From the IMG/VR virus record IMGVR_UViG_2671180676_000004, positions 2,122-66,121 of that record: a DNA stretch of 64,000 bases; one strand, 5' to 3'. Both the position numbers and the translations under genes were made by a program. Below, one piece after another: positions 502 through 62,376 of the stretch. The notes beneath the pieces are model-generated. The model saw nothing but the letters and a program-made list of their open reading frames with translations. It had not been told where the DNA came from and did no database searches. The DNA is from a virus (Duplodnaviria; Heunggongvirae; Uroviricota; Caudoviricetes). The first letter of the stretch is position 1. Each line of letters starts with the position of its first letter.

Positions 502-516
502 AAAACAACTTGTTTT
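502..516. promoter_or_regulatory. palindromic operator-like site AAAACAA-C-TTGTTTT
   Basis: perfect 7-1-7 inverted repeat 24 bp upstream of ATG 540. Confidence 0.5.
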
Positions 517-539
517 AACAAATAACAAAAGGAAAGCAC

Positions 540-965
540 ATGTTAGGTTTATTCAAAAAGAAAACTCGTAAAGCTGTTATCGAGGTCAAAAAAATGGAGA
601 ACCGAGATGCGGTTGAAGCCACCGTGTGGGGCGCGTACATGATCTCCTATGCCGATGGCACATGCGACGCAAAGGAAATTTCCATTCTTGAGAAAACAAT
701 TGCAGCTCTGCCTGCGTTTTCTCCGTTTGCTGGTGAGATTGCCCAAATGAGCGCCAATATCCGTGCTCAATACGAAGCCTCACCGCGCCGCGCTAATGCC
801 CAGGCTTTACGTGAGCTGGCTGATGTGGCCGGGACTAATGATGCAGTAGATGTACTGTGTCTGTGCCTTGATATTGCCGACCAAGACGGTATTGGCGAAC
901 AAGAAGAGCTGGCCCTGAAAAAGATCGCACAGGCGCTTCAGTTGTCACTGGATGCTTATCTCTAA
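540..965 (+). CDS. TerB-like small acidic protein (tentative)
   Basis: 141-aa ORF; helical acidic protein resembling TerB-domain proteins; preceded by palindrome 502-516 and AGGAAAGCAC immediately before ATG. Confidence 0.35.
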   Translation: MLGLFKKKTRKAVIEVKKMENRDAVEATVWGAYMISYADGTCDAKEISILEKTIAALPAFSPFAGEIAQMSANIRAQYEASPRRANAQALRELADVAGTNDAVDVLCLCLDIADQDGIGEQEELALKKIAQALQLSLDAYL

Positions 966-1123
966 TGCTTGAGAGATTCCGGCTTGTGACCGTCATTGCT
1001 CTTCTGGTGATGGCGGTGTTGGTGGATTTTACGGGAAAGATGATGTCTGTCATTTCTGATGGCGTCCTCATTGGTCTGGCGATCTACTTCGCTTATCCGC
1101 TAGTCCGTAAAGCAACGTGTTAA
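965..1123 (+). CDS. small membrane protein (52 aa)
   Basis: ATG overlaps previous stop (TAATG); one hydrophobic helix (VTVIALLVMAVLV); followed by hairpin at 1128-1145; below the ORF-track length cutoff. Confidence 0.25.
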   Translation: MLERFRLVTVIALLVMAVLVDFTGKMMSVISDGVLIGLAIYFAYPLVRKATC

Positions 1124-1230
1124 TGACAAGGGCCAAATGGCCCTTGTGTTTCGTTGACCGAAATAGAGAGTTTGCACCTTTACGTTTAGCTTGCTCCCCT
1201 TTTATGCCACATCACAATAAAGCCAATAAG

Positions 1231-1245
1231 AAAACAACTTGTTTA
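1231..1245. promoter_or_regulatory. palindromic operator-like site
   Basis: AAAACAA-C-TTGTTTA 18 bp upstream of ATG 1263. Confidence 0.5.
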
Positions 1246-1262
1246 AGCATTAGGAAAAACAC

Positions 1263-1832
1263 ATGTGCAAGAAATGCAAAGCGATAGCTGATGAACAAAA
1301 CGCCTTATTCGAAGAAATGGATGCTAATGAACTGGTCAAAATGTTAGCCATTCTTCGAGGAATAGAAGACGTTTCCATATTTGAGAGAGTGGTTACAGCA
1401 CTTAATTTTGAGTCCACCTTTGAAGAGCCAACTCAGGTTGTAGCTTTAGCACATCATTTCGGTGTTCATTATCTTGCTGAAAAAGAGCGCGCTGATAAGT
1501 TGCAGGCGACTTTGGATATGGTGAGCGAGACTCAACGAACTGATGACACTAACAAGAGTGAGGCGATTATTGCCAGCAAAGATCGTGAAATTGCTGGGCT
1601 TAAATCCTCTCTAACGATGTTGATGTCTGCGTTCAATCTTATATCTTCTCAGGCGGGTTATAAAATGCCATCACTAAACAGCGATGATCCGATGGCCGTT
1701 CGTCAGCTTTTGGGAGCAATGGCCGACCAACTCGACGACACAAAGAGTCGGCTTGAAGACATGATGCGTGAGTTAAGCCATCGACATAACCTCGCAACAC
1801 AGCCACACAAAGCCTTTCAAAGCTCTAATTGA
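1263..1832 (+). CDS. hypothetical protein
   Basis: 189-aa ORF; palindrome 1231-1245 and AGGAAAAACAC before ATG, the same upstream module as at 540 and 62395. Confidence 0.4.
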   Translation: MCKKCKAIADEQNALFEEMDANELVKMLAILRGIEDVSIFERVVTALNFESTFEEPTQVVALAHHFGVHYLAEKERADKLQATLDMVSETQRTDDTNKSEAIIASKDREIAGLKSSLTMLMSAFNLISSQAGYKMPSLNSDDPMAVRQLLGAMADQLDDTKSRLEDMMRELSHRHNLATQPHKAFQSSN

Positions 1833-1887
1833 TCTGATATGGCCGCATGATCGGCCATATTGTGTTGATAAAAAACAAGGATGAAAA

Positions 1888-2169: not shown

Positions 2170-2171
2170 TT

Positions 2172-3424: not shown

Positions 3425-6400
3425 CTATATCTGCCCACCTACTCCTTTGAACTTTTCAATAAACGTGACGATTTTCTGGAAAACCGTCTGTTTTTTCGTT
3501 TTATATTGCGGGTTTAACGGACTAAGTTTTGGTAATGTCTCGTTTAATTCTGTGCCATTTTCGGTGGCGTATTCGCGTTTTAAAGACGTGCGAATATAGC
3601 GTTTCGCCGCCTCTTCATTGAGATTTTCTTCTTTAATCAACGCTTCTGCTTCACGTAGCTGTTCGTGTTGAGCAAAGGTAAAGAACGCGTCAATGATGCT
3701 GGCTTTGTCTGGTAAATCATCCAGGTTCGTTTGCTGAATAAAATCGACCACCAGGCCCTCTTTAGCACGGTTCCCTAGGCTTGAACGAATTAAGCGTTTG
3801 ACCTCTTCGATCATTTCGCCCTTGCCTTTATTTTGTCTGTTGTGTTCGAAAATCAGTCCAAGGATATAATCCAGGTTTATTTCCTGAGACTTCAGCAAAT
3901 CGACCTCAAAAACTACGTCATCCCAGTCAGTGGTTGATTTCTCTTTTTTCTCAGCTTCTTTCTCACGGCGCTGCCAGTCGCGAATATCGTTATAGGCAGA
4001 ACGATAATCCTGAATCTTGCGATCAGCAGGGAGACGAATTGTTTGCAATTCAGCGAACTTTTCATCATCCACATAATGTTCTGCTTTGAATTTTTCTACC
4101 GCAACAGGATCGCTAAGATCGATTTGTTGCAGGGCTTTTAGCGTGGCAAATTCATCATAGTTTTGCAGGATGTTCTCGGCACGCAGGTATTCGCCAAACA
4201 GTTTAACGAAGTCTTTCTTCTCTTTTTCACTTTCAATACTGGCAGGGTCAGGGAACCGTTGTTCCAGTTCTGAAACTACTGCCATAAAGCCGCGTTTAGC
4301 TTCACCTGTAGCAGCATCAGTAAAGCCTTCCATATACTCTGCATAACTCTTTTCTAACACTACATTTTTGGTGTTTTTGTCACCAAACAGCGTTATGGCA
4401 TCGATGGTTGAGCGTTCCAGATCGCGGAAAGTGACGATATTACCGAAGGTTTTAGTCGCGTCATAAATGCGGTTGGTACGGGAAAATGCCTGCATCAGGC
4501 CGTGAAAACGCAAGTTTTTATCGACGAATAGCGTGTTTAATGTTGGAGCATCGAAGCCGGTTAAAAACATCCCCACGACGATTAACAAGTCAACATCCTG
4601 ATTTTTAACCCGCTGAGCCAGGTCCCGATAGTAGTTCTGAAAACCCTTGCTATCAGTGCTGAAATTCATTTGAAAATGGTCGTTATACTCACGAATTGCA
4701 GCGTCCAGAAACTCTTTAGCACTGCTGTCCATTGCACTGGTATCAAAAGATTCATCGGATATTTCACCAATGGCATTTTGTTCTTCATTAGCGGCAAAGG
4801 AGAAGATTGTCGCAACACGCAGTGGTTTATAGGTAGCAGATTTATTAGCTGCTTCCTCTTGTAACCGTTTAAACGTCGCGTAATAGGCTTTCGCGGCATC
4901 CACGCTGCTCACTGCCAACATAGCATTAAAACCTTTTGAGCCAGGGAAGGTACGGTGGGTTTTCTGGCGGAAATTATTCAGAATATATTGCGTGATTTCC
5001 TGAATACGCATGGGATGAAGAAACGCCTGCTGATTTTCAGCCGCACTCAGTTTTTTCTCGTCAGTTTCTGTCTCTAAAGACTTAAACTGTGGCCGCACAT
5101 CGTTGTAGTCCACCTTGAATTTGAGCACTTTTTCGTCACGAATCGCATCGGTAATTACATACGAATGCAATTCACGACCAAATACGCTGGCGGTTGTTTC
5201 TGAGCCTAAGGCGTTTTCCGGGAAAATAGGGGTGCCGGTAAAACCAAACTGATAATAACGTTTGAATTTCTTCTTCAGGTTTTTCTGCGCTTCTCCAAAC
5301 TGGCTGCGGTGGCATTCATCAAATATAAACACCACTTGCTGATTATATACAGGCAGGTCGCTTTCTGCTTTCATCAGGTTATTGAGTTTCTGAATAGTAG
5401 TGACGATAATTTTGTTATCGTCCTTATCCAGATTTCGTTTAAGGCCTGCGGTATTTTCCGAGCCGTTGACGCTGTCTGGCGAAAAACGCTGATATTCCTT
5501 CATGGTCTGGTAATCGAGGTCTTTCCTGTCGACCACAAAGAAGACTTTATCAATAAAGTCCAGCTCTGTTGCCAGACGCGCGGCTTTAAAGCTGGTGAGG
5601 GTTTTACCAGAACCGGTAGTGTGCCAGATATACCCACCGCTTTCCGGTTTTGACCAGTTCTTCGCTGTAAAGGAACTCTTAATTTTCCACAGAATGCGCT
5701 CGGTGGCGGCAATCTGGTACGGTCGCATCACCAGTAGCGTCTGACTACTGTCAAAAACGCTGTAGTTCACCAGAACATTCAGCAGAGTATGTTTCTGGAA
5801 AAAGGTAGCGGTAAAGTCTTTGAGGTCTTTAATCAGCGTGTTGTCTGATTTCGCCCAATTCATGGTGAAGTCAAAACTGTTTTTATCGCGCTTTGTGGTG
5901 TTGGCAAAATAACGGGTATCAGTGCCGTTGGAAATGACGAACAGCTGCAGATACTTAAACAGGGAATTTTCGCTGTTAAAACTCTCTTTACTGTAACGAT
6001 GTATCTGGTTGAAAGCCTCACGAATCGCCACCCCGCGTTTTTTTAGTTCGATTTGCACCAGCGGTAAACCATTAACCAGGATCGTGACGTCATAACGGTT
6101 AGCATGAGAACCCGTCTGTTCAAACTGCTGGATAATCTGCACCTTATTGCGCATGAGATTCTTTTTATCTATCAAATAGATGTTCTCAAGTCGCCCGTCG
6201 TCAAAAATAAAGTCGCAGATATAGTCGATATGGATTTTACGGGTTTTATCCAGAATACCATCGCTGGGGTTGTCCAGATACTGCTCCGTGAAGCGCCGCC
6301 ACTCGCTGTCATTAAACATCACACCATTGAGGCTCTGAAGCTGTTCCCGAACATTGGACAGCATTGCCGACTGTGATTTTACGGAAATAAATTCATAACC

Positions 6401-6541
6401 CTGATTCCGCAGGTCCTGAATCAGTTCACGTTCCAGGTCCGATTCGCTCTGGTAGCTGTCGCTTGTTTGCTCAGCTTTGATGTACTTATCAAGGACGATA
6501 AAGTTATTGGATTCAGCAATGGTGTGTGTTTGATGAGTCAT
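3425..6541 (-). CDS. hsdR: type I restriction enzyme R subunit (type IC, EcoR124I-like)
   Basis: 1038-aa ORF; SF2 helicase motifs (TGSGKT Walker A, DECH box); last gene of minus-strand M-S-R order; length typical of type IC HsdR. Confidence 0.9.
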
Positions 6542-6663
6542 AGCGCATCCTTTGTGCCGCCTGGCAAGAGCCGGAAGGGCGTTAAGAGTGACTTCCGGCG
6601 CGTAAAAAAATAGTCTATATACTGACCGGGTGTTAAGGTGGCCCGATCGGTAGCAATGGTCAA

Positions 6664-7902
6664 TTAATTACTGACAGTTTCAGGTTTCGGGAAACTGAAC
6701 AGTAAATCACGGTAGTATTCGTATTGTTTCTGGCGCAACTCGATTTCACGCGGGAGACCTTCGGTGATGGAGTTGGTCAGGGTGTCGAATTTATCGAGCA
6801 GAGCAGATATTCGCTCTTGTTTCTGTTTATCAGGCAATGGCACTGGTAATGTTTTTATAATATCTGCATTCAAGTTACTGACCGACCCGCTATTGATTTT
6901 ACTTTCCCAATAATTTTTCACCTTTTTTGATGAAAGATAGTGATACAGATAATCAGCATTTAATTTTTCACCAAAATTGCTGATTGATGCCCATCCATCA
7001 TGGATAGCTCCGGTTATCCTTAAAATATATGGTCTGCCAAAGCTCATAGAGTTAGAAATGACGAAATCACCGGGGTTCAAGATTCGCGATTTTTGGGCAC
7101 CCTCTGCAGTTATTTTTTGTAAGGTTTTGTCAATGTATTTAGAGCCGGGGATAGTATCTCCGATTTTAATCCATGGGATACCATTTCCTTGTTCAGTAAG
7201 ATAATTAACAATTGGCCTGGGGGATGCCCCACGTTGTATTTTGGCTACTTCTCCCAATGCCTTCCACTCAACCTCACCCTCTTTAAAACTCAGCAACTGG
7301 TCGCGATAGTAGTTGTACTGTTTTTTACGCATGTTAAGCTCAGCGGTAAGCTCAGCGGTAAGTGCAGTAAACTTATCCAGAATCCGAACAATTTCAGACT
7401 GGATGGCAAGGGATTTTCCCGGGGCGCTGGGACAAGGGATGGGTATTTGATAGTTTAAAATTGCATCTTTACTGCCTCGAGGCATCTTTGCCCCTTTAGC
7501 GTGCTGCATACTGTAAGAAAAAAATGAATCCGACGATAATGCATAGTAGAGATATTCTGGACTAATAATTTTTTTACAGTCTGCTAAAATGCGTATAGCA
7601 AGGACATCACCACTGCACCCGCCATTATTCTCCGCCATCCAAACTTTCTTTAAATATGGGCGAATATTACCTAAAAGAATATCACCTGGCTCATAGGCAG
7701 TTAAACGTGCCGTATTAGGCTGATAGGTGGCGTCAATGCGACCGCCTTTATCAGCAAGGAGATTATCAACGCCAACGAATGAAGTGGCATCAAGTTTATC
7801 AGCATCAACTTTGGTTGTTGAATACCCGGCGATATCGCCCACTGCTTTCCACTCAACCTCAACCCCATCCAGCAATTTTTCCAGATAACTCAACTCGCTC
7901 AT
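6664..7902 (-). CDS. hsdS: type I restriction-modification specificity subunit (type IC)
   Basis: 412 aa; two target-recognition domains separated by conserved central region containing TAELTAEL and followed by conserved C-terminal region ending [13 protein letters not shown]; start overlaps hsdM stop. Confidence 0.85.
7337..7360. repeat. 12-bp tandem duplication (2 copies) encoding TAEL-TAEL in hsdS central region
   Basis: AGCTCAGCGGTA repeated at 7337-7348 and 7349-7360. Confidence 0.85.
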
Positions 7903-9461
7903 TTCTGCACCTCGCAGCCTTCAATTTCAGCCACAATCGCATCAATATCTTTACGCAACTGGTCGATTTTGCTGACCGTGGTTTTCAGCTCTGCATTCAA
8001 CTCAGCGATATCGATAATTTCGCGAGTATCTTTCACTTCAACATAGCTGCTCACCGACAGGTTATAGTCATTAGCAACAACAGTCTCAAACGCAACAGAT
8101 TTCGCCAGATGAGCAACATCTTCCTTGCTGGCAAATACCTGCATAATTTTTTCTATATGGGCATCGGTCAGAATGTTGTTGTTAGTCTCTTTTTTGAACA
8201 GTTCGCTGGCATCAATAAACTGAACTTTGGTATCCGTTTTATGTTTAGACAGCACCAGAATATTGACGGCAATGGTGGTGCCAAAGAACAGGTTCGGTGC
8301 CAGTGAAATCACGGTTTCGACATAGTTATTGTCAACCAGATACTGACGGATTTTCTGCTCCGCGCCGCCACGGTAAAAAATGCCCGGGAAGCAGACAATC
8401 GCAGCACGACCTTTGGCAGAAAGATAGTTCAGCGCATGTAATACAAACGCAAAGTCAGCTTTGGATTTGGGGGCCAGAACGCCAGCCGGGGCAAAACGTT
8501 CATCGTTAATCAGCGTCGGGTCATCGCTGCCAATCCATTTCACCGAATACGGCGGGTTAGAAACGATGGCATCAAACGGTTTTTCATCTCTGAAGTGCGG
8601 CTCAGTCAGCGTATTGCCCAGCTTGATATCAAACTTGTCGTAGTTGATGTTGTGCAAAAACATGTTCATACGCGCCAGGTTATAGGTCGTATGGTTGATC
8701 TCCTGACCGAAAAAGCCTTCTTCGATGATGTGGTCATCGAACTGCTTTTTCGCCTGCAACAACAGCGAACCGGAACCTGCTGCCGGGTCGTAGATTTTGT
8801 TAACGTGGGTCTGGCCGTGCATTGCCAATTGTGCAATCAGCTTAGAGACGTGCTGCGGTGTAAAGAACTCGCCGCCTGACTTACCAGCATTCGCGGCATA
8901 GTTAGAAATCAGGAACTCATAGGCATCGCCGAACAGGTCAATCTGATGTTCGTTGAAGTCACCAAGTTTTAACCCTTCAACCCCTTTCAGAACCGCAGCC
9001 AGGCGGGCATTTTTATCTTTAACGGTGTTACCCAGGCGGTTACTGGTGGTATCGAAATCAGCAAACAAACCTTTGATGTCAGCTTCTGAAGGATAACCGT
9101 AAGCAGAACTTTCGATAGCAACGAAGATGCTGTTTAAATCTGCGTTCAGTCTGTCATTGGTATTTGCTTTCGCCGCTACGTTGCAGAAAAGCTGACTGGG
9201 GTAGATGAAGTAGCCTTTAGTTTTGATGGCATCGTCTTTAATGTCATCAGTAATTACGCTGTCATCCAGTTTCGCATAACAGATACTGTCATCACCGGCT
9301 TCAATATAGCTGGAAAAATTTTCGCTGATAAAACGGTAGAAAAGTGCGCCCAGAACGTATTGCTTAAAATCCCATCCATCGACCGAACCCCTGACATCGT
9401 TAGCAATTTGCCAGATTTGACGATGAAGCTCTGCACGTTGTTGAATACTTGTCATTTTCAT
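7899..9461 (-). CDS. hsdM: type I restriction-modification DNA methyltransferase subunit
   Basis: 520 aa; N6-adenine methyltransferase motifs (NPPY at the catalytic site, AdoMet-binding DPAAGSGS); first gene of operon. Confidence 0.9.
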
Positions 9462-10587
9462 CCACTTATTTCAGGCTTATGTAATTGGCGGTGATTCTAC
9501 AGCAACTTGGATGCTTTAGCAGTTCGGACATTAGGCAACGAATGACCTAATTAGAGCTTTTTGGAAAAGCGGTATTGTCGGTGCGATGATAGCTATGTTT
9601 GGGTGCGCGATGGTGCAATACAATGACGGTGAAAAGGTAAGCATCCAGTCTGATGGCTGGTATGGGCTGGATAGCCTGCAAAAAACCGCAGATAAAGCCT
9701 GTCAGCAATATGGAAAGTCTAAAGCCGTATATCAGCATAGCGCGAACGCTAATCCACATCTCGCGCCCGGCACGGGCGTTCAGAACACTATTTGGAAATG
9801 CGAACCATAACGCAGGTTGGCTTTTTACATCTTGGGCCGAATACTGATTCCGCGCTAAGTTGTTTGTGCGGAAGTGACACTGTGGAGCTTAGAAATAGTA
9901 AATACTGGTGGGCAACAAATTGAGCCTTCACACGCTCACCAGCACACACAAAAAATGGTTAAACAGCAAGGGAATTAATATCTCATCGCGACATTAAATA
10001 AGCCAGCGCACGCCTCTGTTTATCACTGACTTGAAAAACCATATCAGAACCACGATGAAGACAATCGCCAGCACTTGGCTAAGAACAGGCGCATTTAAAA
10101 ATGCACTTAGAAACTGAAAAAATACAATCATCAGGGTAATCCTCGTCTAATGTAAAGCTGTGTGCTCTCACGTTGACGTAGAAACCCAACCTCTATATAG
10201 TTGGATTCGGTGAAAGAAAGTCGTTAACGTGAACTTACGGCACATGTTTTCGGTATAAAAATCAGGGAACTGTGAATTCCTTGATGTAGTTGGGGCCTGT
10301 AATGCAGGCCCTATCTATTAATGTCATGATTACATCTCAAATTTTCTCCTTATCATTATTATTTAATAAAATTCAATTAATATAATATCCATTTCCTGTG
10401 TGTGCAAACACAGTATGAGGAAAATGGCCCCGTTGCAAGTGCATAACTTTGTGGATAACTCTGAAGGCGAATTTACATTTCGGCGCACCGCAAGCCAGAT
10501 AAGCTGTGCGCAAAAAGCAATGGGGTGAGAAAAAAACTTTGAAGATATTGCGGCGACTAAATAATAGCCGTTATTCAATTATTCTGG

Positions 10588-10851
10588 ATGGGATTTAATA
10601 TGAACGAATGGAACATAGCAGCCAAAAGCCAGGAAGAAAGGAATAAAGTTAACGTTGACCTGGCTGCCAGGGGGGTTGCCTACAAAGAGCGATTGAACAT
10701 ACCCGTCATAGCGGAACAGGTAGCCCGTGAGCAACCTGAGAACCTGCGCACCTATTTCATGGAACGGCTACGGCACTACCGGCAGTTAAGCCTCCTGCTG
10801 CCAAAAGGAAACGATCCGGTATATCAGAAAGAAGATATAGCCAAAAAATAA
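10588..10851 (+). CDS. hypothetical small protein
   Basis: 87-aa ORF (alternative ATG at 10600) directly upstream of UmuD'-like gene; no family recognised. Confidence 0.3.
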
Positions 10852-10949
10852 CGCGCCACCAGGCGAGCGCAAAGCATCGCGCTATTGCACACTTCAAGCA
10901 TCTTTAATGTATACTGTATGGATAAACAGTACTCTGAGGTGAAAACGCT

Positions 10950-11339
10950 ATGGGCTTCCCTTCTCCTGCGGCGGATTATGCTGAGAGTCGTATTTCTCTT
11001 GATCAGCAGATAATTAGACATCCTTCAGCGACCTACTTCTTGAGGGCAGCTGATAGTCATCATCGTGAGGGAATATTACAGGGTGCATTGCTGGTGGTCG
11101 ATTCCTCACTTACCCCGGTTGATGGTTCTCTGCTTGTATGCGCTCTGGATGGGGAATATCGCGTAAAAAGATACCGGAAGTATCCACGTCAGCATCTGGA
11201 GGATTTGAGAACCGGTAAGAAGGAAGCATTGCCAAAGGATGACGATGGATGCACGGGCAGCAATGCCGTGTTTGGTGTGATCACTCACATTATCAACGAC
11301 GCAAGAAGTGGCGAGTTTGATGATTGTCCCGTGATGTAG
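10950..11339 (+). CDS. UmuD'-like S24-family peptidase, naturally lacking the N-terminal cleavable segment
   Basis: 129 aa beginning M-GFPSPAADY, the sequence that follows the Cys24-Gly25 self-cleavage site in E. coli UmuD; candidate Ser (ADSH) and Lys (RVKRY) dyad positions retained; no umuC partner adjacent. Confidence 0.6.
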   Translation: MGFPSPAADYAESRISLDQQIIRHPSATYFLRAADSHHREGILQGALLVVDSSLTPVDGSLLVCALDGEYRVKRYRKYPRQHLEDLRTGKKEALPKDDDGCTGSNAVFGVITHIINDARSGEFDDCPVM

Positions 11340-11375: not shown

Positions 11376-12476
11376 TCACACTGCGCGGAATGCGATCTCG
11401 CCAGGTATTACTTCGCCTTGCCAATACATTTGGGCAGCAACGCGATCTGCGAGGTCACGATAAATAGCCGTAAATTCGCTATCTGGACGACTAATAACGG
11501 TTGGTGTTCCGTTATCCAGATCTTCACGAAGAGAGATATGAAGTGGCATTTGGCCTAACAACTGCGTGTTGTATTTCTCGGCCAGTTTCTGTGCGCCACC
11601 GGTGCCAAAAATTGGCTCGTGATGACCGCAGTTACTGCAAATATGCACACTCATGTTTTCGACGATACCCAGTACCGGCACTTCGACTTTTTCGAACATC
11701 ACAATGCCTTTCTTCGCATCGATCAGCGCGATGTCTTGCGGCGTAGTTACCACAACCGCACCAGTTACAGGAATGTTCTGCGCCAGCGTCAACTGAATAT
11801 CACCAGTGCCCGGCGGCATATCGAGAACGAGATAGTCCAGATCAGGCCATAGAGTTTCCTGCAACATCTGCATCAGCGCCTTGCTGGCCATCGGTCCACG
11901 CCACACCATTGCATTGTCGTCGGTGACCAGATAACCAATAGAGTTGGTTGCCAGGCCATGAGACATGATAGGTGCCATGTGAGTACCGTCCGGTGAGGTT
12001 GGACGTTGGTTTTCCGCGCCCAGCATGGTTGGAATTGATGGACCATAGATATCGGCATCCAAAATACCAACTTTCGCACCTTCAGCAGCCAACGCCAGTG
12101 CCAGGTTTACCGCCGTGGAGGATTTACCCACGCCGCCCTTGCCTGAGCTGACGGCGATAATGTTCTTAACGCCATTAATGCCTGGTTGGTTTTTGACGCG
12201 CTTAAGCGTGGCAATGTTGTACGACAGCTTCCAGTCAATAGCCTTTGCGCCAGTGATACGGAGCAGATCACCACTACATTGCTCTTTCAGGTCTTCAAAA
12301 GGCTTATTCCACACGAAAGGCATGATTAGTTCGACATGCAGTGTGTCATCCATCAACGCAACATGGTGTAACGCTTTAAGCGTAGTCAGGTTGTGTTTCA
12401 GGGTTGGGTGCTGAAAATTAGCCAGCGTACCGGCTACCATTGCTCTCAGGGCATCCGGCGATTTGGACTCGCTCAT
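11376..12476 (-). CDS. apbC: Fe-S cluster carrier ATPase ApbC/Mrp
   Basis: 366 aa; P-loop GKGGVGKS; CxxC pair; divergent from metG as in Escherichia chromosomes. Confidence 0.9.
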   Translation of the reverse strand: MSESKSPDALRAMVAGTLANFQHPTLKHNLTTLKALHHVALMDDTLHVELIMPFVWNKPFEDLKEQCSGDLLRITGAKAIDWKLSYNIATLKRVKNQPGINGVKNIIAVSSGKGGVGKSSTAVNLALALAAEGAKVGILDADIYGPSIPTMLGAENQRPTSPDGTHMAPIMSHGLATNSIGYLVTDDNAMVWRGPMASKALMQMLQETLWPDLDYLVLDMPPGTGDIQLTLAQNIPVTGAVVVTTPQDIALIDAKKGIVMFEKVEVPVLGIVENMSVHICSNCGHHEPIFGTGGAQKLAEKYNTQLLGQMPLHISLREDLDNGTPTVISRPDSEFTAIYRDLADRVAAQMYWQGEVIPGEIAFRAV

Positions 12477-12633
12477 CCCGTCTCCTTTATTTTAATTTGC
12501 GCAATTGTCGCCTTGTAGTGTACTCCAGCTACGACATTTAATCATTTATGAGAAATGCTGTTATCACATGGCAGACATAAGGCCATTTTGTTACTATCAA
12601 GCCCCTTTTCACTACAAAGAAGTAATGCCTACT

Positions 12634-14667
12634 ATGACCCAAGTCGCGAAGAAAATTCTGGTGACGTGCGCGCTGCCGTACGCTAACGGCTCAATCCACC
12701 TCGGCCATATGCTGGAGCACATCCAGGCTGATGTCTGGGTTCGTTACCAGCGAATGCGCGGCCACGAGGTTAATTTCATCTGTGCCGACGATGCCCACGG
12801 TACGCCGATCATGCTGAAAGCACAGCAGCTTGGTATCACACCGGAGCAGATGATTGGCGAAATGAGTCAGGAACACCAGACTGATTTCGCAGGCTTTAAC
12901 ATCAGCTATGACAACTATCACTCGACGCACAGCGAAGAGAACCGTCAGTTGTCTGAGCTTATCTATACTCGCCTGAAAGAGAACGGTTTTATTAAAAACC
13001 GCACTATCTCTCAGTTGTACGACCCGGAAAAAGGCATGTTCCTGCCGGATCGTTTTGTAAAAGGCACCTGCCCGAAATGTAAAGCGCCAGATCAATACGG
13101 CGATAACTGTGAAGTCTGCGGCGCAACATATAGCCCGACTGAATTGATCGAGCCGAAATCGGTGGTTTCTGGCGCTACCCCGGTAATGCGTGATTCCGAA
13201 CACTTCTTCTTTGATCTACCTTCTTTCAGCGAAATGTTGCAGGCATGGACCCGCAGCGGCGCGTTGCAGGAGCAGGTGGCGAACAAAATGCAGGAATGGT
13301 TTGAATCCGGCCTGCAACAGTGGGATATATCCCGCGATGCGCCTTACTTCGGTTTTGAAATTCCGAACGCGCCGGGCAAATATTTCTACGTCTGGCTGGA
13401 CGCGCCGATTGGCTACATGGGTTCCTTCAAGAATCTGTGCGACAAGCGCGGCGATACCACCAGCTTCGATGAATACTGGAAGAAAGACTCCACCGCCGAG
13501 CTGTACCACTTCATCGGTAAAGATATTGTTTACTTCCACAGCCTGTTCTGGCCTGCCATGCTGGAAGGCAGCAACTTCCGCAAGCCGACCAACCTGTTTG
13601 TTCATGGCTATGTGACGGTGAACGGCGCGAAGATGTCCAAGTCTCGCGGCACCTTTATTAAAGCCAGCACCTGGCTGAATCATTTTGACGCTGACAGCCT
13701 GCGTTACTACTACACTGCGAAACTCTCTTCGCGTATTGATGATATCGATCTCAACCTGGAGGATTTCGTTCAGCGTGTGAATGCCGATATCGTTAACAAA
13801 GTGGTTAACCTGGCGTCCCGTAACGCTGGCTTTATCAATAAGCGTTTTGACGGTGTGCTGGCAGGCGAACTGGCTGACCCGCAACTGTATAAAACCTTCA
13901 CTGATGCTGCTGAAGTGATTGGTGAAGCATGGGAAAGCCGCGAATTTGGTAAAGCTATCCGTGAAATCATGGCATTGGCTGACCTGGCTAACCGCTATGT
14001 CGATGAACAGGCTCCGTGGGTGGTGGCGAAGCAGGAAGGACGCGATGCCGATCTGCAGGCGATTTGCTCTATGGGCATTAACCTGTTCCGCGTGCTGATG
14101 ACGTACCTGAAGCCGGTACTGCCGAAACTGACTGAACGTGCAGAAGCATTCCTGAATACAGAACTGACCTGGGATGGTATCCAGCAACCGCTGCTGGGCC
14201 ATAAAGTGAATCCGTTCAAGGCACTGTATAACCGCATCGATATGAAGCAGGTTGAAGCACTGGTGGAAGCATCCAAAGAAGAAGTGAAAGCCACAGCCGC
14301 ACCGGTAACTGGCCCACTGGCTGACGACCCGATTCAGGAAACTATCACCTTTGACGACTTCGCCAAAGTTGACCTGCGCGTGGCGCTGATTGAAAACGCA
14401 GAGTTTGTAGAAGGTTCTGACAAACTGCTTCGCCTGACGCTGGATCTCGGTGGTGAAAAGCGTAATGTCTTCTCAGGCATCCGTTCCGCTTATCCAGATC
14501 CACAGGCACTGATTGGTCGTCACACCATTATGGTGGCTAACCTGGCACCACGTAAAATGCGCTTCGGTATCTCTGAAGGCATGGTGATGGCTGCTGGCCC
14601 CGGCGGGAAAGATATCTTCCTGTTAAGCCCGGATGCTGGTGCTAAACCTGGCCACCAGGTTAAGTAA
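12634..14667 (+). CDS. metG: methionine--tRNA ligase
   Basis: 677 aa from ATG 12634 ([26 protein letters not shown]); HIGH-type and KMSKS motifs; zinc knuckle CPKC...CEVC; C-terminal tRNA-binding domain; intrinsic terminator at 14690-14713. Confidence 0.95.
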
Positions 14668-14750: not shown

Positions 14751-14765
14751 AAAACAATTTGTTTT
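14751..14765. promoter_or_regulatory. palindromic operator-like site
   Basis: AAAACAA-T-TTGTTTT, first of a tandem pair after metG terminator. Confidence 0.5.
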
Positions 14766-14801
14766 CTACCTTTTGTTGATGGAGATAATAAACCACATAA
14801 G

Positions 14802-14816
14802 AAAACAACTTGTTTT
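14802..14816. promoter_or_regulatory. palindromic operator-like site
   Basis: AAAACAA-C-TTGTTTT, 13 bp upstream of ATG 14829. Confidence 0.5.
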
Positions 14817-17608: not shown

Positions 17609-17623
17609 AAAACAATTTGTTTA
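17609..17623. promoter_or_regulatory. palindromic operator-like site
   Basis: AAAACAA-T-TTGTTTA upstream of ATG 17635. Confidence 0.5.
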
Positions 17624-17964: not shown

Positions 17965-18092
17965 CCCCAACCAAAGCCAGCAATGCTGGCTTAATTTCTC
18001 TATAGCCGCAGGGAGGAACCTGCATATCGATCATGCACCTGATCATTATGCTTTGTAGCCGTTTTCTTACTGGTATTATTTACGCCATTGAG

Positions 18093-18107
18093 AAAACAAG
18101 TTGTTTA
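18093..18107. promoter_or_regulatory. palindromic operator-like site
   Basis: AAAACAA-G-TTGTTTA upstream of ATG 18118. Confidence 0.5.
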
Positions 18108-18117
18108 CGGAGTTGTG

Positions 18118-18429
18118 ATGAAAAAATCATTGGTTCTTGGTCTGGACAAAGACCAGAAGAGAAAAGAGAAGCCTGCACTGGTTGCTCAATTAACTTTGCT
18201 AGACATCGTTGCCAATGGAACTTCTATTCGTCTGTTCCGTGAAACAGCGGTGTCTTTCGATAAAAACACCTTTACTCGTTATGTAATGAATGTTCGTCGC
18301 CAGCGTGGAAAAGGATGGGTGGCATTTCAAAGAATGTGGCCGGAACATCAGCTCGAACTGGCCTTGATGGAAGTTAACCGCGTGGCCCAGCAAGAAATTC
18401 AGAGAGCATCAGTGATGGCAATAGCCTGA
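18118..18429 (+). CDS. hypothetical protein
   Basis: ATG 18118; palindrome 18093-18107 upstream; terminator 18464-18492 downstream. Confidence 0.4.
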   Translation: MKKSLVLGLDKDQKRKEKPALVAQLTLLDIVANGTSIRLFRETAVSFDKNTFTRYVMNVRRQRGKGWVAFQRMWPEHQLELALMEVNRVAQQEIQRASVMAIA

Positions 18430-18463
18430 TAATGTGCAAGTGGTAATTAGTCGACAGTACGAC

Positions 18464-18492
18464 AGCCCCGCCATCCTTACGGGGCTTTTTTG
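18464..18492 (+). terminator. intrinsic terminator
   Basis: AGCCCCG..CGGGGCT stem followed by TTTTTTG. Confidence 0.65.
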
Positions 18493-18555
18493 TATTGTAA
18501 GTACATACTTACGATCATAGAATATAAAAATAACCAATACACTACGGAGAGTGAA

Positions 18556-18951
18556 ATGACCGTTAAACGCGAAAAACTGACAGTTGATGTTTACTATGCC
18601 TCTGAAACCGCCGAAGGTAAGAATGTGGCAAAAATCACCGTTGTTACGTACAACACCGAAACTGGTGCCGAAGTCCAGGCCAGTACGATCGTGCGTAAAG
18701 GTGACGCCTCCGGCGGCGAGTACGCGACTCAATACCAGTCCATTCTCGATGCAACTGACCCGCTGCTGCTGAAAATCGAGAACTACTTCCGCCAGGTTGA
18801 TGAAGAGGTGTTTGAAACCATGATGAATATGGTTAACACCGTATTCGCCTCCAGCCTGAACACCAGCACCACCTGGATTGGCCAGTACGGTCTGCGCATT
18901 ACCTCTGGCATTCCTGCCGACACCTTAATCCCTGAAAGCGTATTCGCTTAA
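18556..18951 (+). CDS. hypothetical protein
   Basis: ATG 18556 with GGAG upstream; terminator hairpin 18961-18988 downstream. Confidence 0.4.
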   Translation: MTVKREKLTVDVYYASETAEGKNVAKITVVTYNTETGAEVQASTIVRKGDASGGEYATQYQSILDATDPLLLKIENYFRQVDEEVFETMMNMVNTVFASSLNTSTTWIGQYGLRITSGIPADTLIPESVFA

Positions 18952-18995: not shown

Positions 18996-19010
18996 ATAAC
19001 AATTTGTTTT
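18996..19010. promoter_or_regulatory. palindromic operator-like site (variant half-site)
   Basis: ATAACAA-T-TTGTTTT upstream of ATG 19069. Confidence 0.4.
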
Positions 19011-19068
19011 CTGCCTTATCAGATTTGTGAAAATGATTTCACTGAAGCAACTTAATAAGGAAACCATC

Positions 19069-19759: not shown

Positions 19760-19774
19760 AAAACAATTTGTTAT
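19760..19774. promoter_or_regulatory. palindromic operator-like site
   Basis: AAAACAA-T-TTGTTAT upstream of ATG 19794. Confidence 0.45.
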
Positions 19775-25501: not shown

Positions 25502-25583
25502 AAACCTCTTTCCTTAGTGCCTTTTGTATGTTATTTGGCTATTATAATAAGTAAGTGATTACTTAGTGGATTGTAGCAATAAA

Positions 25584-28858: not shown

Positions 28859-28874
28859 TAATTAAACAACCCAG

Positions 28875-28889
28875 AAAACAAGTTGGTTA
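28875..28889. promoter_or_regulatory. palindromic operator-like site (variant)
   Basis: AAAACAA-G-TTGGTTA, first of a tandem pair upstream of terminase genes. Confidence 0.4.
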
Positions 28890-28899
28890 GAAAATGCAG

Positions 28900-58103: not shown

Positions 58104-58333
58104 TCTCCTCTGTTCAAACTGAGTTTTCGACTCAAAAATTACTTTAAAAGGCTATAGCCCATTACGTGTGCATTATCAAATTGTGTACGGCATATCACCG
58201 TACTTGTAATATAGAGGTCATTGTTACTTTTTTCAACAGACAAATACAAGCTATGATTGCCAATTGTTAATCACAACCTACCATTTAACCTTTACACCGC
58301 AGCCGTAGGCATTTAGGCTATATCACATATAAG

Positions 58334-58348
58334 AAAACAAGTTGTTTC
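58334..58348. promoter_or_regulatory. palindromic operator-like site
   Basis: AAAACAA-G-TTGTTTC upstream of parA ATG 58383. Confidence 0.5.
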
Positions 58349-58382: not shown

Positions 58383-59051
58383 ATGACCAAGATCTTTGTG
58401 GTTGGCGGCACAAAGGGCGGGCCTGGCAAATCCACCGTTGCCCAGCAAATTGCCGTTTGCCTGAAAGTCAAAAAGAAGAAGAAGGTTTATATTACCGATA
58501 TAGATATTCAGCGCACGACAACGAGCTGGTGTGAAGACCGTCGACAGAACGAAGACCTTGAGCTGATTCCTTTTGCATACGTTCAGGATGACATCATTAA
58601 GCACCTAAAATCGCTTCAGGGTAGAGCTGAGTTTGTAGTGGTAGATGCTGGTGGCTTCGACTCCGAAATTCAGCGACAAGCGATGCTGATGGCTGACGTT
58701 ATCATTATCCCGCTGCGTCCTAAGCGTCGTGATTTGAAATCTTTACGTGACATCGATCCTATTATCGACAATGTTCGCAATGTAAACGATAAAGTGAAGG
58801 TCCGCGCGGTCATGAACCAGTGCCCGGCTTTGCCATCACAAGTGTCTCGCATTCTGGCGGCTAAAGAGATTGTCGAGACGTTTGGCATCGAGTCTGCGCC
58901 AGTCAATCTATATAACCGCAACGTCTACGATGATGCGGAAGAGTCTGGTCGTTCTATCTTCGAAATGACCGGTAGCGAGCGCGACAAAAAGGCGGAAGCC
59001 GAGTTTGAAGAATTTGTAGATTATCTGTTGAGTCTGGAGGAAGAAGAATAA
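58383..59051 (+). CDS. parA: ParA-family partition ATPase (small, type Ib)
   Basis: 222 aa; deviant Walker A GGTKGGPGKST; palindrome 58334-58348 upstream. Confidence 0.8.
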   Translation: MTKIFVVGGTKGGPGKSTVAQQIAVCLKVKKKKKVYITDIDIQRTTTSWCEDRRQNEDLELIPFAYVQDDIIKHLKSLQGRAEFVVVDAGGFDSEIQRQAMLMADVIIIPLRPKRRDLKSLRDIDPIIDNVRNVNDKVKVRAVMNQCPALPSQVSRILAAKEIVETFGIESAPVNLYNRNVYDDAEESGRSIFEMTGSERDKKAEAEFEEFVDYLLSLEEEE

Positions 59052-59410
59052 TGTCCATGAAAATGGGTGACCTAGCAAAGCGCAAAGAGCCTGATGCACC
59101 GGCTAAGAACACAACTCCTTTGCGCCAACCAGTCAGACCACAAGGACGCCCGACTCGTGGCAAAGAGAAAATTAAAAGCCGCACCATGTCACTGGAAGAC
59201 GAATACTTCGAGCTTCTGGAAATGATGAAGTTTATCCCTCGTTTCGAGAAGTTCACCCGCTCTGATGTGATTCGTGCTGCTATTTTCCATCTGGCAGAGA
59301 AGTCGCCGCAGGAAATCGAGGATATCGTGAAACTTAACGAGGCGATCACTGCTGCCGACGTCACGATGCGTACCGATGAAATCAAACGCGAGTTGATGAA
59401 GAAAGGTTAA
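59051..59410 (+). CDS. small partition partner protein (ParG/RHH-like, tentative)
   Basis: 119 aa, basic disordered N-terminus, start overlaps parA stop; terminator 59418-59442 downstream. Confidence 0.45.
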   Translation: MSMKMGDLAKRKEPDAPAKNTTPLRQPVRPQGRPTRGKEKIKSRTMSLEDEYFELLEMMKFIPRFEKFTRSDVIRAAIFHLAEKSPQEIEDIVKLNEAITAADVTMRTDEIKRELMKKG

Positions 59411-60174: not shown

Positions 60175-60240
60175 CTCCAGACTTTCCTCAAATGATTATG
60201 TTGGGCGCTTTTCTTATTGAACTGGTTAGTGAGGCTAATA

Positions 60241-61413
60241 ATGGATTTGTTCTCAACCAAAATAGCAAAAAACAAGCTGCACGAATCTTTTAAACAGATT
60301 TATCAAGATAATACATATGCTCCAGTAAGAGAAGTGATACAGTCGTGGGGGCGTGGGTTACTGGAGCGTAGCGGTGAGCAGACTAAATTCGTTAAAGAGT
60401 TTCAGACAACCTTCAATTCCGCCTTATGGGAATTGTATCTGAACGAAATGTTTATTCGTCTCGATTATTCTGTCGACTACACAAAAGACAGTCCCGATTT
60501 CTGTGTTACTACACCGTCAGGCTACCAGTTTAACGTCGAAGCTGTGATATCAGATCGGCCACATAATCCACCTGCAGGTGCTCTTTTTAGCGAATTAAAA
60601 TTCAAACATCAATCAACGCTAAAATTAATCGGAAAAATCAAAGACAAACATGATCTTTTTACAGGAGTTAATGGCAAAAAATTCCCGTACTCTACGATGT
60701 CTCATGTAGTTAATAAGCCGTTTGTTCTGGCGCTTGCACCCTTTGACTCCGATTTATCATTGTCTCAAAATAACACAATCATCAATCGAGTGTTGTTTGG
60801 CATTGAGGAACCTACCACCAGAAATTTGGTGACTGGCAGCCAAACTAAAGTTACCTCAATCAAAAAGAATGAAGACGTTGAAATTCCATTAGGTATATTT
60901 ACTAACGACTCATATAAAGAAATAAGTGCGGTTATTTTCTCCACCACCGGCACTTTTGGAAAAGCCGTGGTTCAAAGCGGTATCGGTAGATATGTAAGGT
61001 CAACACGATATCGAGCCATTGATGTGAATGATTTCATCGCCAATGAAGGGATGAAAAACGAGGGAAAGCACACACAAAGGATAGGACCTGATCATTTCAT
61101 CACTACATATCGGCATTTTTTAAATAACGAAGTCACTGGTGCGGATATTGTAGTTTGTCATTCCACTGCTCATGAAGAGACGCACTTTGACGGCCTTCAT
61201 ATTTACTACAATCCTTTTGCGACAGTGCCACTGGACAGAAATATTTTCTTCCCCCCAGAGATAACTCATAATTTTTACGATATGGAAAAAGAACAGTCTG
61301 TTCAGAATCATCCTGATGGAGCGCTGGTATCTAGACAGGTTTTTGAACCAACTAGAGCACATTTTAGGTATATCATGAAACATTGGTTTCCAGGCTTTCT
61401 AAAAGATGTTTAA
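60241..61413 (+). CDS. hypothetical protein (low-GC cargo gene 2)
   Basis: ATG 60241 with GAGG upstream; 390 aa; followed by long hairpin 61439-61492 plus T-run. Confidence 0.4.
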   Translation: MDLFSTKIAKNKLHESFKQIYQDNTYAPVREVIQSWGRGLLERSGEQTKFVKEFQTTFNSALWELYLNEMFIRLDYSVDYTKDSPDFCVTTPSGYQFNVEAVISDRPHNPPAGALFSELKFKHQSTLKLIGKIKDKHDLFTGVNGKKFPYSTMSHVVNKPFVLALAPFDSDLSLSQNNTIINRVLFGIEEPTTRNLVTGSQTKVTSIKKNEDVEIPLGIFTNDSYKEISAVIFSTTGTFGKAVVQSGIGRYVRSTRYRAIDVNDFIANEGMKNEGKHTQRIGPDHFITTYRHFLNNEVTGADIVVCHSTAHEETHFDGLHIYYNPFATVPLDRNIFFPPEITHNFYDMEKEQSVQNHPDGALVSRQVFEPTRAHFRYIMKHWFPGFLKDV

Positions 61414-61438
61414 GCATCCTGCTGGTTGAATTTGGAAC

Positions 61439-61492
61439 CTGCTTCTGTATATAAATACTAAGTTACTTATTATTATTTATACGGAAGCAGGT
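61439..61492. repeat. long hairpin element, copy 2 (same arms as 28782-28836)
   Basis: CCTGCTTCTGTATATA ... TATACGGAAGCAGG with centre TAAGTTACTTA, followed by TCTTTTTCT. Confidence 0.6.
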
Positions 61493-61601
61493 CTTTTTCT
61501 ATGCCAACTTCCCAGACACATTCCCTTCCGTTTCCACTTCCAAAAACTGCCACCAGTCGCTATCATCCGCTCATTGCAATAAGTAAGTAACTACCTATCT
61601 G

Positions 61602-62351
61602 GTGAGCCACATGAGCCAAATCTTTTTTGATACCATTGACAACGACCAGTACGACTTCATGACAGAGTGGAATACCGCTGTTATGGACAAGTGGGTCGCT
61701 GAAAACATTGGTTTGTCGCGCTGCAAAGACGAGGCTGAACTCTTCGAGACGAAGTGGTTTGATTACCGCGATATGCATCCTCTCATGGCCACCTGTCTGT
61801 TTACGGAGGCGTACAAACGTCAGTACTCAAATATCATGCTGACGCACGGTCGCGAACACTTTGAAACAGCTCCGTTCACCACCGGGTTAAAACGCCTGCC
61901 TTATCAGGAGTTGTCGACTGCCAATAAAACGTCGCTATGGAAAGCACGCCAGTTTGCTGATCGCTATTGCTGTTCATACGACTACTTTATCTCCACGGTT
62001 CTTTCCGCAGCTGCACGGCGTCTGTGGGACAAGTTGCCGCGCCCACAGCATTTATGGCAGCCAGAACTGATTGAGATATTCGAAGAGAAATTATCCAGAC
62101 GCGCAACAACCCGTCTGGATGACTCTCTGGTTAGCTTTAAGCATATGGGAGACATGCAGTTCAACCCGATTCAGGAAAGCTATTTTGAGTGGATTCTGGA
62201 GCGTTTGCGCATCATCCCCCGCAGCAAGCGCATACGCGCAATTTTCTCTGCTATCTGGCTAATGGAAATCGTTCCAGAGCGCCTTATTTCCGCCCACTTT
62301 CCAGAAGAACTGGAAGAAGCACGGCGGTTTATTGATCCCCTATCTAATTAA
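61602..62351 (+). CDS. hypothetical protein (replication-region)
   Basis: 249 aa directly upstream of DnaB-like helicase. Confidence 0.4.
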   Translation: MSHMSQIFFDTIDNDQYDFMTEWNTAVMDKWVAENIGLSRCKDEAELFETKWFDYRDMHPLMATCLFTEAYKRQYSNIMLTHGREHFETAPFTTGLKRLPYQELSTANKTSLWKARQFADRYCCSYDYFISTVLSAAARRLWDKLPRPQHLWQPELIEIFEEKLSRRATTRLDDSLVSFKHMGDMQFNPIQESYFEWILERLRIIPRSKRIRAIFSAIWLMEIVPERLISAHFPEELEEARRFIDPLSN

Positions 62352-62361
62352 CTAATACTAG

Positions 62362-62376
62362 AAAACAATTTGTTTA
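62362..62376. promoter_or_regulatory. palindromic operator-like site
   Basis: AAAACAA-T-TTGTTTA; the surrounding 40 bp is near-identical to the region upstream of ATG 540. Confidence 0.5.

Follow-up and report, generated by a model that had tools for sequence, protein, structure and literature searches.

Several mobile elements control unrelated transcription units through a short operator sequence that is dispersed over their genomes. On the IncP plasmids RK2 and RP4, the partition DNA-binding protein KorB recognizes a short palindrome, its operator OB, that is present in about a dozen copies, and many operons are repressed. In phage P1, more than a dozen dispersed C1 operators keep lytic functions off, including the gene ban for a DnaB-type helicase. 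The Sop partition system of the phage-plasmid N15 also influences phage late-gene expression. Its SopB protein binds single inverted repeats at separate places in the phage DNA instead of a single tandem array (PMC7205306). On plasmid pSM19035, where a small ParA is likewise paired with a small partner, the sites of the partner omega (ω2) lie across several promoters, that of the parA homologue among them, and double as centromeres, called parS (PMC3074150). Here, we analyzed a stretch of 64,000 nucleotides of a tailed-phage genome (IMG/VR record IMGVR_UViG_2671180676_000004, positions 2,122 to 66,121; hereafter the window), in which twelve copies of the 15-bp palindrome AAAACAA-N-TTGTTTT precede otherwise unrelated genes. 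Our explanation, to which we give a probability of about 0.55, is that the palindrome is the dispersed operator of one regulator, the likeliest candidate being the small partner protein encoded directly after parA (59051-59410, plus strand).

This locus shares parts of each described system. The omega sites are built from 7-10 contiguous 7-bp heptads at three promoter regions that each occur twice (six parS sites), whereas here single or paired 15-bp palindromes stand at ~19 promoters; omega and the ParA partner have no detectable sequence similarity, and the host element here is a phage-plasmid with lytic and late targets. As with OB, the palindromes are dispersed at the promoters of unrelated operons (12 copies in the window and 19 each in phage Cyrano and in the divergent Klebsiella quasipneumoniae plasmid pKqq_SB1124_3, hereafter pKqq). 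KorB, however, is a ParB-family helix-turn-helix protein whose sites lie at variable distances from promoters, while the positions here are fixed near +14 and -38. N15 offers a phage-plasmid precedent for dispersed single inverted repeats bound by a partition protein, a binding that is only predicted here, but its system is of type Ia, with a large SopA, a ParB-family SopB and four GC-rich 16-bp sites in no fixed promoter register. In P1, the C1 operators are 17-mers that lack symmetry and to which the immunity repressor itself binds, whereas the element here has dyad symmetry and its immunity repressor seems to rely on a different motif. By analogy, the element would work like the dispersed-operator networks of mobile elements, with no demonstrable membership in any named system; its distinctive traits are the rigid two-position promoter register and a probable link to a partition operon.

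We identified the window as 64 kb of a ~108-kb SSU5/Cyrano-type Escherichia coli phage-plasmid, because its first 20 kb is 97% identical to Escherichia phage Cyrano (pLF82) and phage CMS-2020a, and its large terminase (TerL) is 99.5-100% identical to theirs and 95-96% identical to those of Salmonella phage SSU5 and Klebsiella phage-plasmids. Alignment with the Cyrano annotation shows a region of small 'early' genes, a minus-strand cluster with a UvsW-like helicase and an FljA-like gene, a ParB-like/ABC cluster, the whole terminase-to-lysis late operon, a KacT toxin-antitoxin pair, the parA operon and a DnaB-like helicase gene, in this order; the genes for the cI-like repressor, the integrase and RepA, and most of those for replication and recombination, are found beyond the window. 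About 800 of the ~1,000 TerL-matching plasmids in PLSDB are enterobacterial. SSU5-type phage-plasmids are very common in clinical Enterobacteriaceae and include S. Typhi pHCM2-type plasmids, Yersinia pestis pMT1 and Klebsiella elements that carry antimicrobial resistance, and we found no description of the wiring of their lysis/lysogeny and maintenance circuits in the literature searched.

All twelve sites listed in a preliminary description of the window (starting at 502, 1231, 14751, 14802, 17609, 18093, 18996, 19760, 28875, 28900, 58334 and 62362) match AAAACAANTTGTTTT, three exactly, eight with one mismatch and one (28875) with two. The palindrome is strongly enriched: the window holds three exact matches compared to 0.00 in shuffled sequences, and 14 matches with up to two mismatches compared to 0.92 ± 1.01, the largest count in any shuffle being five. 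The two additional two-mismatch matches (22675 and 23913) fall within minus-strand coding sequence and look like chance. When all 6-N(0-4)-6 palindromes in the window were counted de novo, AAACAA-N-TTGTTT was the commonest 6-N-6 palindrome, with nine copies versus three for the runner-up.

The twelve sites all lie between open reading frames, and the palindrome ends 10-64 nt before an ATG that is preceded by a Shine-Dalgarno (SD) sequence, close to the 13-60 bp first reported. The targets that had been named are borne out by the annotation of the 97%-identical Cyrano: a TciA-like gene and other small early genes, the small terminase gene terS, parA and the DnaB-like helicase gene. A proposed duplicated module of 40 bp, upstream of ATG 540 and ATG 62395, proved to be overstated; the two copies share ACTAG plus the palindrome (~20 nt) and, beyond a 5-nt indel, ACAAAGGAAAGCACATG (17 nt), and there is little similarity further upstream. 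The ribosome-binding context AGGAAA(G/A)CAC-ATG found at these two starts (530-542 and 62385-62397) recurs at 63806-63818, giving three copies where 0.16 are expected, and also precedes many genes in Cyrano and pKqq. When aligned, the sites reveal a conserved element that exceeds 15 bp and is asymmetric, AG-AAAACAA-N-TTGTTTa, or AGAAAACAAGTTGTTTA in duplex form.

We found that the sites fall into two classes according to their position relative to a -10-like hexamer. In class A, the hexamer (GATAAT, TATTAT, CACAAT or TAGGCT; often TG-extended) is followed by the palindrome after 12-13 nt (14 nt at parA), and then by the SD sequence and the ATG; the spacing is 12-13 nt wherever the hexamer scores 5/6, while the distance from palindrome to ATG varies between 10 and 39 nt. 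In class B, the element lies in the reverse-complement orientation (TTGTTTT-CT), and an extended -10 sequence (TGTGATAAT or TGTGAAAAT) stands exactly 18 nt downstream, a spacing found in nine of nine cases across the window, Cyrano and pKqq. The extended half-site (AG or CT) is the promoter-proximal one in every case. Promoters and start points are predictions, the latter placed ~7 nt from the -10 by rule; with these, class A sites are centered near +14 and class B sites near -38, where the TTGTTT arm covers the -35 position. We read these positions as two fixed registers of predicted sigma-70 promoters, many of which have an extended -10.

The individual sites, all on the plus strand, illustrate both registers. 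Class A includes the exact copy at 502-516, flanked 5′ by AG and located 23 nt before ATG 540 of the TciA-like gene, and one-mismatch copies at 1231-1245 (CACAAT at 1213-1218, 12 nt upstream; ATG 1263 after 17 nt), 17609-17623 (the extended -10 TGCGATAAT ends 12 nt upstream; ATG 11 nt downstream), 18093-18107 (the extended -10 TGGTATTAT ends 13 nt upstream; ATG 10 nt downstream), 19760-19774 (GATAAT 13 nt upstream; ATG 19794 after 19 nt) and 62362-62376, which stands 18 nt before ATG 62395 of the DnaB-like helicase and is kept in pKqq. A class B site with one mismatch (18996-19010) follows a terminator-like hairpin and lies 18 nt upstream of TGTGAAAAT (hexamer at 19029-19034), with the ATG 58 nt downstream. 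The two classes meet around one predicted -10 hexamer, GATAAT at 14784-14789: an exact class B copy (14751-14765, 3′ flank CT, centered near -38) lies 18 nt upstream and an exact class A copy (14802-14816) starts 12 nt downstream, itself 12 nt before ATG 14829 of a DUF5983 protein. This pair, with centers 51 bp apart, recurs in Cyrano (93113/93164) and pKqq (77333/77384).

A second pair stands in the leader or promoter of terS, where copies at 28875-28889 (two mismatches) and 28900-28914 (one mismatch) have centers 25 bp apart, the latter being 39 nt before ATG 28954. The pair is conserved in Cyrano, in pMT1 and in pKqq, where it is found at a dnaE-like gene. As RNA, the two palindromes of the terS leader (28870-28960) can pair with each other. 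On their 3′ side, directly before terS, a GC-rich hairpin (AGAGCGC-ATGGAC-GCGCTCT) is followed by UGUGUGUUUU (minimum free energy, -25.3 kcal/mol; z = -2.5). The stem is retained in pMT1 with another loop, and the pKqq hairpin has no U-run. The hairpin before terS is a candidate for a terminator-like attenuator, though its function is uncertain.

Such regular placement could also arise with no trans-acting factor, if a promoter or leader cassette had been duplicated and the palindrome were passive. The flanks of the copies are indeed alike, those of class A having a CA-rich AACACCAAYAAG spacer and those of class B CTRCCTTWTC. Within copies, however, the palindrome is far better conserved than these flanks, it is invariant at orthologous promoters while its surroundings diverge, and it occurs in two orientations and two positions relative to the -10. 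We find passive spread scarcely credible.

The motif is unchanged in all enterobacterial SSU5-group elements examined, even where neighboring proteins are only 41-69% identical. The whole Cyrano genome has 19 sites with up to two mismatches, 17 of which lie in intergenic gaps or directly before an SD-ATG; those beyond the region covered by the window precede a cobT-like gene, nrdB and others. In pKqq, 19 sites meet the same threshold and have an identical consensus, while protein identities to the window are 91% for TerL, 69% for DnaB, 68% for ParA, 49% for the ParA partner and 41% for the FljA-like protein. At the orthologous parA and dnaB promoters, the palindrome is invariant and the flanks have diverged. 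In IMG/VR, the motif is unchanged around FljA-like genes at 45 loci (FljA-like identity 67-100%), being missing only in short or truncated ones, and Y. pestis pMT1 keeps eight intact sites. The Acinetobacter baumannii relatives, whose TerL is 59.6% identical, have zero AAACAA-type sites and carry instead 11 copies of another palindrome, AGTAAG-N2-CTTACT. An exact scan of viral contigs confined multi-copy occurrence to SSU5-like contigs, with single matches elsewhere in AT-rich DNA; those on three non-SSU5 contigs (L072, L060 and L106) were inspected and dismissed as chance. We regard the palindrome as a genuine, selectively maintained regulatory element that is specific to the enterobacterial SSU5 group.

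A target sequence that is invariant across Escherichia, Klebsiella, Salmonella, Yersinia, Enterobacter, Citrobacter and Cronobacter elements while plasmid proteins diverge, and that is absent from Acinetobacter relatives, could belong to a host transcription factor or nucleoid protein that is common to Enterobacterales and was recruited by the phage-plasmid. To our knowledge, however, the sequence matches no known E. coli operator consensus, and its 13-mer core appears in no paper of the literature searched. Moreover, the presence of ~20 sites per element would freeze the motif equally for a plasmid-encoded factor. A host-encoded binder is therefore improbable in our judgment.

The data favor an element that acts as duplex DNA. 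Across 39 distinct site variants, 54 arm changes are one-sided and break pairing, two create G-U pairs and only two are compensated, both at the outermost pair. As RNA, the palindrome's hairpin is worth -0.6 kcal/mol, predicted folds of the native leaders bypass it (z-scores of +0.43 to -0.73), and Rfam has no match in the window. Spacing to the -10 is constant, whereas spacing to the start codon varies, and class B sites are upstream of the predicted promoters, outside the predicted transcript. Because of the one-sided arm changes, the weak hairpin, the spacing and the location of class B, we consider a protein-bound DNA operator likely. The same observations, with no stable stem in sight, do not support a hairpin in the 5′ untranslated region (UTR), which the preliminary description had raised as an alternative.

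An RNA-level role need not involve a hairpin, and the window encodes a protein that could recognize single-stranded leaders. The gene at 22641-23162 (minus strand), which corresponds to CYRAN_114 of Cyrano, encodes a full-length member of the FljA family (PF03614, E = 2.5e-84). Its AlphaFold2 (AF2) model is confident (predicted local distance difference test score, 84.8; predicted template modeling score, 0.82) and consists of two tandem helix-plus-five-strand units, each of which superposes on Hfq with a root-mean-square deviation of ~1.1 Å and a probability of 1.0, the top Foldseek matches all being Hfq. We found no solved structure for the PF03614 family. It belongs to the core of ~835 enterobacterial SSU5-type plasmids, 345 of them from Klebsiella and 62 from Y. 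pestis, hosts that are typically non-flagellate or non-motile; its role in these plasmids is therefore probably not just repression of host flagellin. The protein evolves fast, with identities of 41-100% and dozens of alleles, and is 34% identical to the true Salmonella FljA.

In this alternative, the tandem Hfq-like protein would bind 5′-AAG AAAACAA N UUGUUUW in leaders, the RNA form of the element being AAGAAAACAAGUUGUUUA, block translation and destabilize the mRNAs, much as FljA does on fliC. The A-rich tract followed by a U-rich tract is the kind of sequence bound by the faces of Hfq, and the class A sites lie in predicted 5′-UTRs, 10-39 nt before the ATG. The gene is expressed in the lysogen (log2 of 7-8 in several conditions) and is missing from the motif-less Acinetobacter group. 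Proteins of this family are published RNA-binding translational repressors that bind the operator region of the fliC mRNA (PMC4122451, PMC2652032), acting on the 5′-UTR just upstream of the SD sequence. FljA, however, has a single chromosomal target whose leaders lack the motif, and the geometry here tracks the promoter and not the SD sequence: the class A distance to SD and ATG is unconstrained, and class B sites stand upstream of predicted promoters at exactly 18 nt from the -10. A ring-shaped binder of single-stranded RNA would give no reason for exact dyad symmetry that extends to the C/G pair, and the protein is among the fastest-evolving core gene products (41-83% identity) while the motif is invariant. 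The Salmonella fliC leader, with its sequence verified by means of published primers, shares CAAGTTGT with the element. We treat this match as coincidence, probably chance (roughly p = 0.01-0.05), because the E. coli fliC leader lacks the 8-mer even though FljA-type proteins act on E. coli. Consequently, we judge translational repression by the FljA-like protein to be unlikely. A bolder version, with the element as the RNA target of the tandem-Hfq protein at ~20 mRNA 5′ ends, the protein as a ring-forming, Sm-like and sequence-specific global translational repressor of the lytic program and Salmonella FljA as its domesticated single-target descendant, seems slightly less likely again.

We compared the sites with published expression values for the Cyrano lysogen, taken from a transcriptome of the LF82 study (PMC9928086, S1 Table). 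Apart from the parA operon, the first genes of motif-bearing units are silent, at 5.7-25 compared to a prophage median of 9.8; the values include 7.1 for terS, 21 for the helicase, 7.8 for the cobT-like gene, 12.9 for nrdB, 7.0 for the TciA-like gene and 7.5 for CYRAN_101. The parA operon is the exception, with 50 for parA, 89 for its partner and 55 for the next gene. The strongly expressed genes all lack the motif: the toxin-antitoxin pairs, the cI-like repressor (96), RepA (133), the HumD-like gene (148) and CYRAN_43 (7084). This pattern lends moderate support to repression in the carrier state combined with an autoregulated parA operon, and it is only moderate because most lytic genes are silent in a lysogen regardless.

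With silent lytic genes bearing the motif, the classical regulator of lysogeny comes to mind. The cI-like master repressor (the CYRAN_45 homologue, encoded outside the window) is well expressed, and Cyrano has a site (43104) at a distance of 100 nt on the downstream side of the cro-like gene, so that a P1 C1-style regulon could be imagined. Its own divergent control region (CYRAN_45/46), however, holds different motifs, GGTAAGTGCTTACC and GGTAAG/CTTACC copies in Cyrano and TTTTAGTAAGTAAGTAA repeats in pKqq, with no AAACAA-type site. Moreover, the cI-like family is present in the Acinetobacter relatives, where the 11 dispersed AGTAAG-N2-CTTACT palindromes occur with no AAACAA sites. Control by the cI-like repressor is very improbable. 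Thus, the resemblance to global operator networks noted in the preliminary description holds in its core idea of one dispersed operator that marks a regulon, given the fixed -10 spacing, the conservation across the enterobacterial SSU5 group and the lysogen-silent genes, while its analogy to P1 C1 is probably wrong in detail, because the cI-like control region holds GTAAG-type repeats instead.

A second, rarer dispersed palindrome, (G)TAAGTA-N2-TACTTA(C), was found in the window (18498, 37842 and 51266), in Cyrano (9023, 22453, 38253, 72600 and 96691) and in five copies in pKqq. The copies of the window and Cyrano are intergenic and just after stop codons, including inside the late operon. The cI-like repressor probably owns the GTAAG-type sites, including this second palindrome, which may mark the master repressor's own dispersed regulon.

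We propose that the palindrome would be the duplex-DNA operator of one dimeric regulator that is encoded by the phage-plasmid and is other than the cI-like immunity repressor. The operator would be centered either at ~+14, a short way past the start point, or at ~-38, across the -35 region, with some promoters having both. The bound protein would thus stand in the way of RNA polymerase and hold down the expression of ~15-20 transcription units while the element persists as a plasmid-prophage. The repressed units would comprise early small genes, the DnaB-like helicase, nrdB, the cobT-like gene and the terminase/late operon, while the parA operon would be autoregulated through the same site. 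The likeliest binder would be the ParA partner, acting as a type-Ib-style centromere-binding protein, in which case the sites would serve as operator and dispersed centromere at once, like omega/parS, KorB/OB and SopB with its inverted repeats IR1-4. We infer repression, action on DNA and the identity of the binder from the patterns above, and we use a single repressor as our working hypothesis.

Several features of the partition operon point to the ParA partner. The ParA protein (58383-59051, plus strand; 222 amino acids) is a small Walker-type ATPase that matches the MipZ, AAA_31, CbiA and ParA families from residue 2 onward and has no N-terminal DNA-binding extension, as in type Ib. The partner gene, CYRAN_29 in Cyrano, overlaps the parA stop codon and encodes 119 amino acids, with an N-terminus that is variable except for an MGDLAKR tail, then a basic arm (RPQGRPTRGK) and an IKSRTMS segment, a variable linker separating the tail from IKSRTMS, and, in the monomer model, helices at 48-60 and 70-84. 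Besides the tail, the invariant parts are the basic arm, IKSRTMS and the helix FTRSDVIRAAI; the arm, IKSRTMS and helix B are unchanged even in members that are 48% identical overall. These invariant segments would match an invariant target. The layout appears to agree with the published description of type-Ib proteins, in which a disordered N-terminal tail that contacts the ATPase is followed by a C-terminal DNA-binding domain (PMC5016525). A partner of this type would be expected to join a divergent, flexible N-terminus that bears a conserved arginine to a C-terminal beta-alpha-alpha (ribbon-helix-helix) domain. Across elements where the FljA-like protein is 65-83% identical, the partner is 91-100% identical, it is expressed in the lysogen at 89 compared to the median of 9.8, and its gene is absent, like the motif, from the Acinetobacter relative.

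The parA promoter itself is legible in both deep branches. The predicted promoter (58291-58319, plus strand) has TTTACA, a 17-nt spacer and TAGGCT, and the pKqq orthologue has TTGTCA-17-TAGGCT; this puts the class A palindrome (58334-58348, one mismatch) at ~+8 to +22. Upstream of parA, the -10 together with the palindrome is the only non-coding block that is invariant across four lineages. A 20-bp imperfect palindrome, TGATTGCCAATTGTTAATCA, lies nearby at 58254-58273, between the divergent KacT-antitoxin and parA promoters, and is a candidate for the operator of the toxin-antitoxin pair.

In the Acinetobacter sister element (A. baumannii p5768; L049-L051), two tandem copies of a different palindrome, ATCTATATAGA, stand at the parA promoter (12035-12058), and a second cluster of this repeat near 66 kb (65910-66102) is a possible centromere. 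This arrangement is what a type-Ib system would be expected to show, carried by another sequence. The same element encodes a sigma-70-family sigma factor (18089-18754) that is not found in Cyrano.

The binder could instead be another plasmid-encoded DNA-binding protein that acts mainly in the lytic phase, as a temporal repressor or as an activator from -38. ParB-family proteins classically bind palindromes, and KorB is a textbook global regulator; the window encodes two ParB_N proteins, including a ParB-family KorB-like protein (25566-26932), as well as an 88-amino-acid protein (28491-28757) with weak matches to winged-helix-turn-helix families (Sta1/Lrs14). The latter is well conserved (78% in pKqq, 89% in pMT1) and is encoded just upstream of terS, beside the double site. 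Many motif promoters lack a -35 element, and -38 is a workable position for an activator, but a site centered at +14 is not. The genes for the 88-amino-acid protein and both ParB_N proteins are at lysogen background (5.0-9.5 compared to the median of 9.8), the state in which the targets are silent and the parA operon is on, and all three proteins are retained, at 33-42% identity, in the motif-less Acinetobacter relative. A regulator of this kind is unlikely.

Three genes follow the distribution of the motif, being absent from the Acinetobacter element: those for the ParA partner, the FljA-like protein and the DUF5983 protein. The DUF5983 gene is silent in the lysogen. No sign of DNA binding came from the other lysogen-expressed proteins of unknown function. 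Among the binders named in the preliminary description, the ParA partner is thus the best supported, while the ParB-like and 88-amino-acid proteins fared poorly, being lysogen-silent and retained where the motif is absent. We tentatively name the ParA partner as the protein that binds the palindrome, an assignment that is possible rather than probable.

A number of observations weigh against this explanation. For the ParA partner, a ribbon-helix-helix fold is indicated only by a sub-threshold NCBIfam match; Pfam searches with all alignment members and a sequence search of the PDB returned nothing, hhalign comparisons with ParG and omega were negative, and the AF2 monomer model is of low confidence, with no fold match in Foldseek. 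Known type-Ib centromeres are contiguous repeat arrays rather than single palindromes (PMC3074150, PMC5016525), and within several hundred bp on either side of the parA promoter we found no iteron array and one palindrome only. Absence from Acinetobacter is equally true of the FljA-like and DUF5983 genes. Plasmid pMT1 has lost ParA and its partner with its eight sites intact, although it is probably too young for site decay to show. The model offers no account of how a partition protein that acts as repressor would be displaced on SOS induction. A generic sigma-70 -35/-10 scan of the window called none of the motif promoters, a result in keeping with extended -10 promoters that have no -35. 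Finally, class A sites lie inside predicted 5′-UTRs, leaving room for a role as RNA; since a fixed -10 spacing is also a fixed spacing from the mRNA 5′ end, class A alone cannot separate the two levels.

Two comparisons that might have named the binder did not do so. The natural knock-out offered by pMT1 was set aside as uninformative owing to the youth of this element. In pKqq, where the FljA-like protein (41%) and the partner (49%) have both diverged, the motif is identical and covariation with either protein was not seen.

The motif maps ~20 co-regulated promoters and narrows the candidate regulators to a few. Should the ParA partner prove to be the binder, partition and lytic silencing would be linked by a single protein acting at a shared set of sites, which would extend the theme of omega, KorB and N15 SopB to a large phage-plasmid family and would suggest a route to derepression by copy-number titration. 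A role of the FljA-like protein as binder would make the finding a good deal more unusual. What the motif marks is a new, widespread and clinically relevant regulon, of a familiar kind unless either of these two readings is true.

Other features of the window and its relatives were recorded in passing. A type I restriction-modification cassette (R, S and M genes; 3425-9461, minus strand) runs opposite to its surroundings, is ~96% identical to cassettes of the P1-like phages phi456 and vB_EcoM-673R5 and is lacking at that position in Cyrano; it looks like an exchangeable accessory module. The region 9937-11338 is ~83% identical to the lxr-humD (UmuD-like) region of phage P1, and its Cyrano homologue is the strongly expressed HumD-like locus (148 compared to the median of 9.8). 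At 12505-14667, the window carries a full-length methionyl-tRNA synthetase-like gene, annotated as MetRS in Cyrano. Outside the window, the Cyrano gene CYRAN_43 (L001, 40268-40822) encodes a hypothetical protein of 184 amino acids with no Pfam match, and its lysogen expression exceeds the prophage median ~700-fold. A non-coding RNA may be concealed in this locus, or its product may be a major factor in lysogeny.

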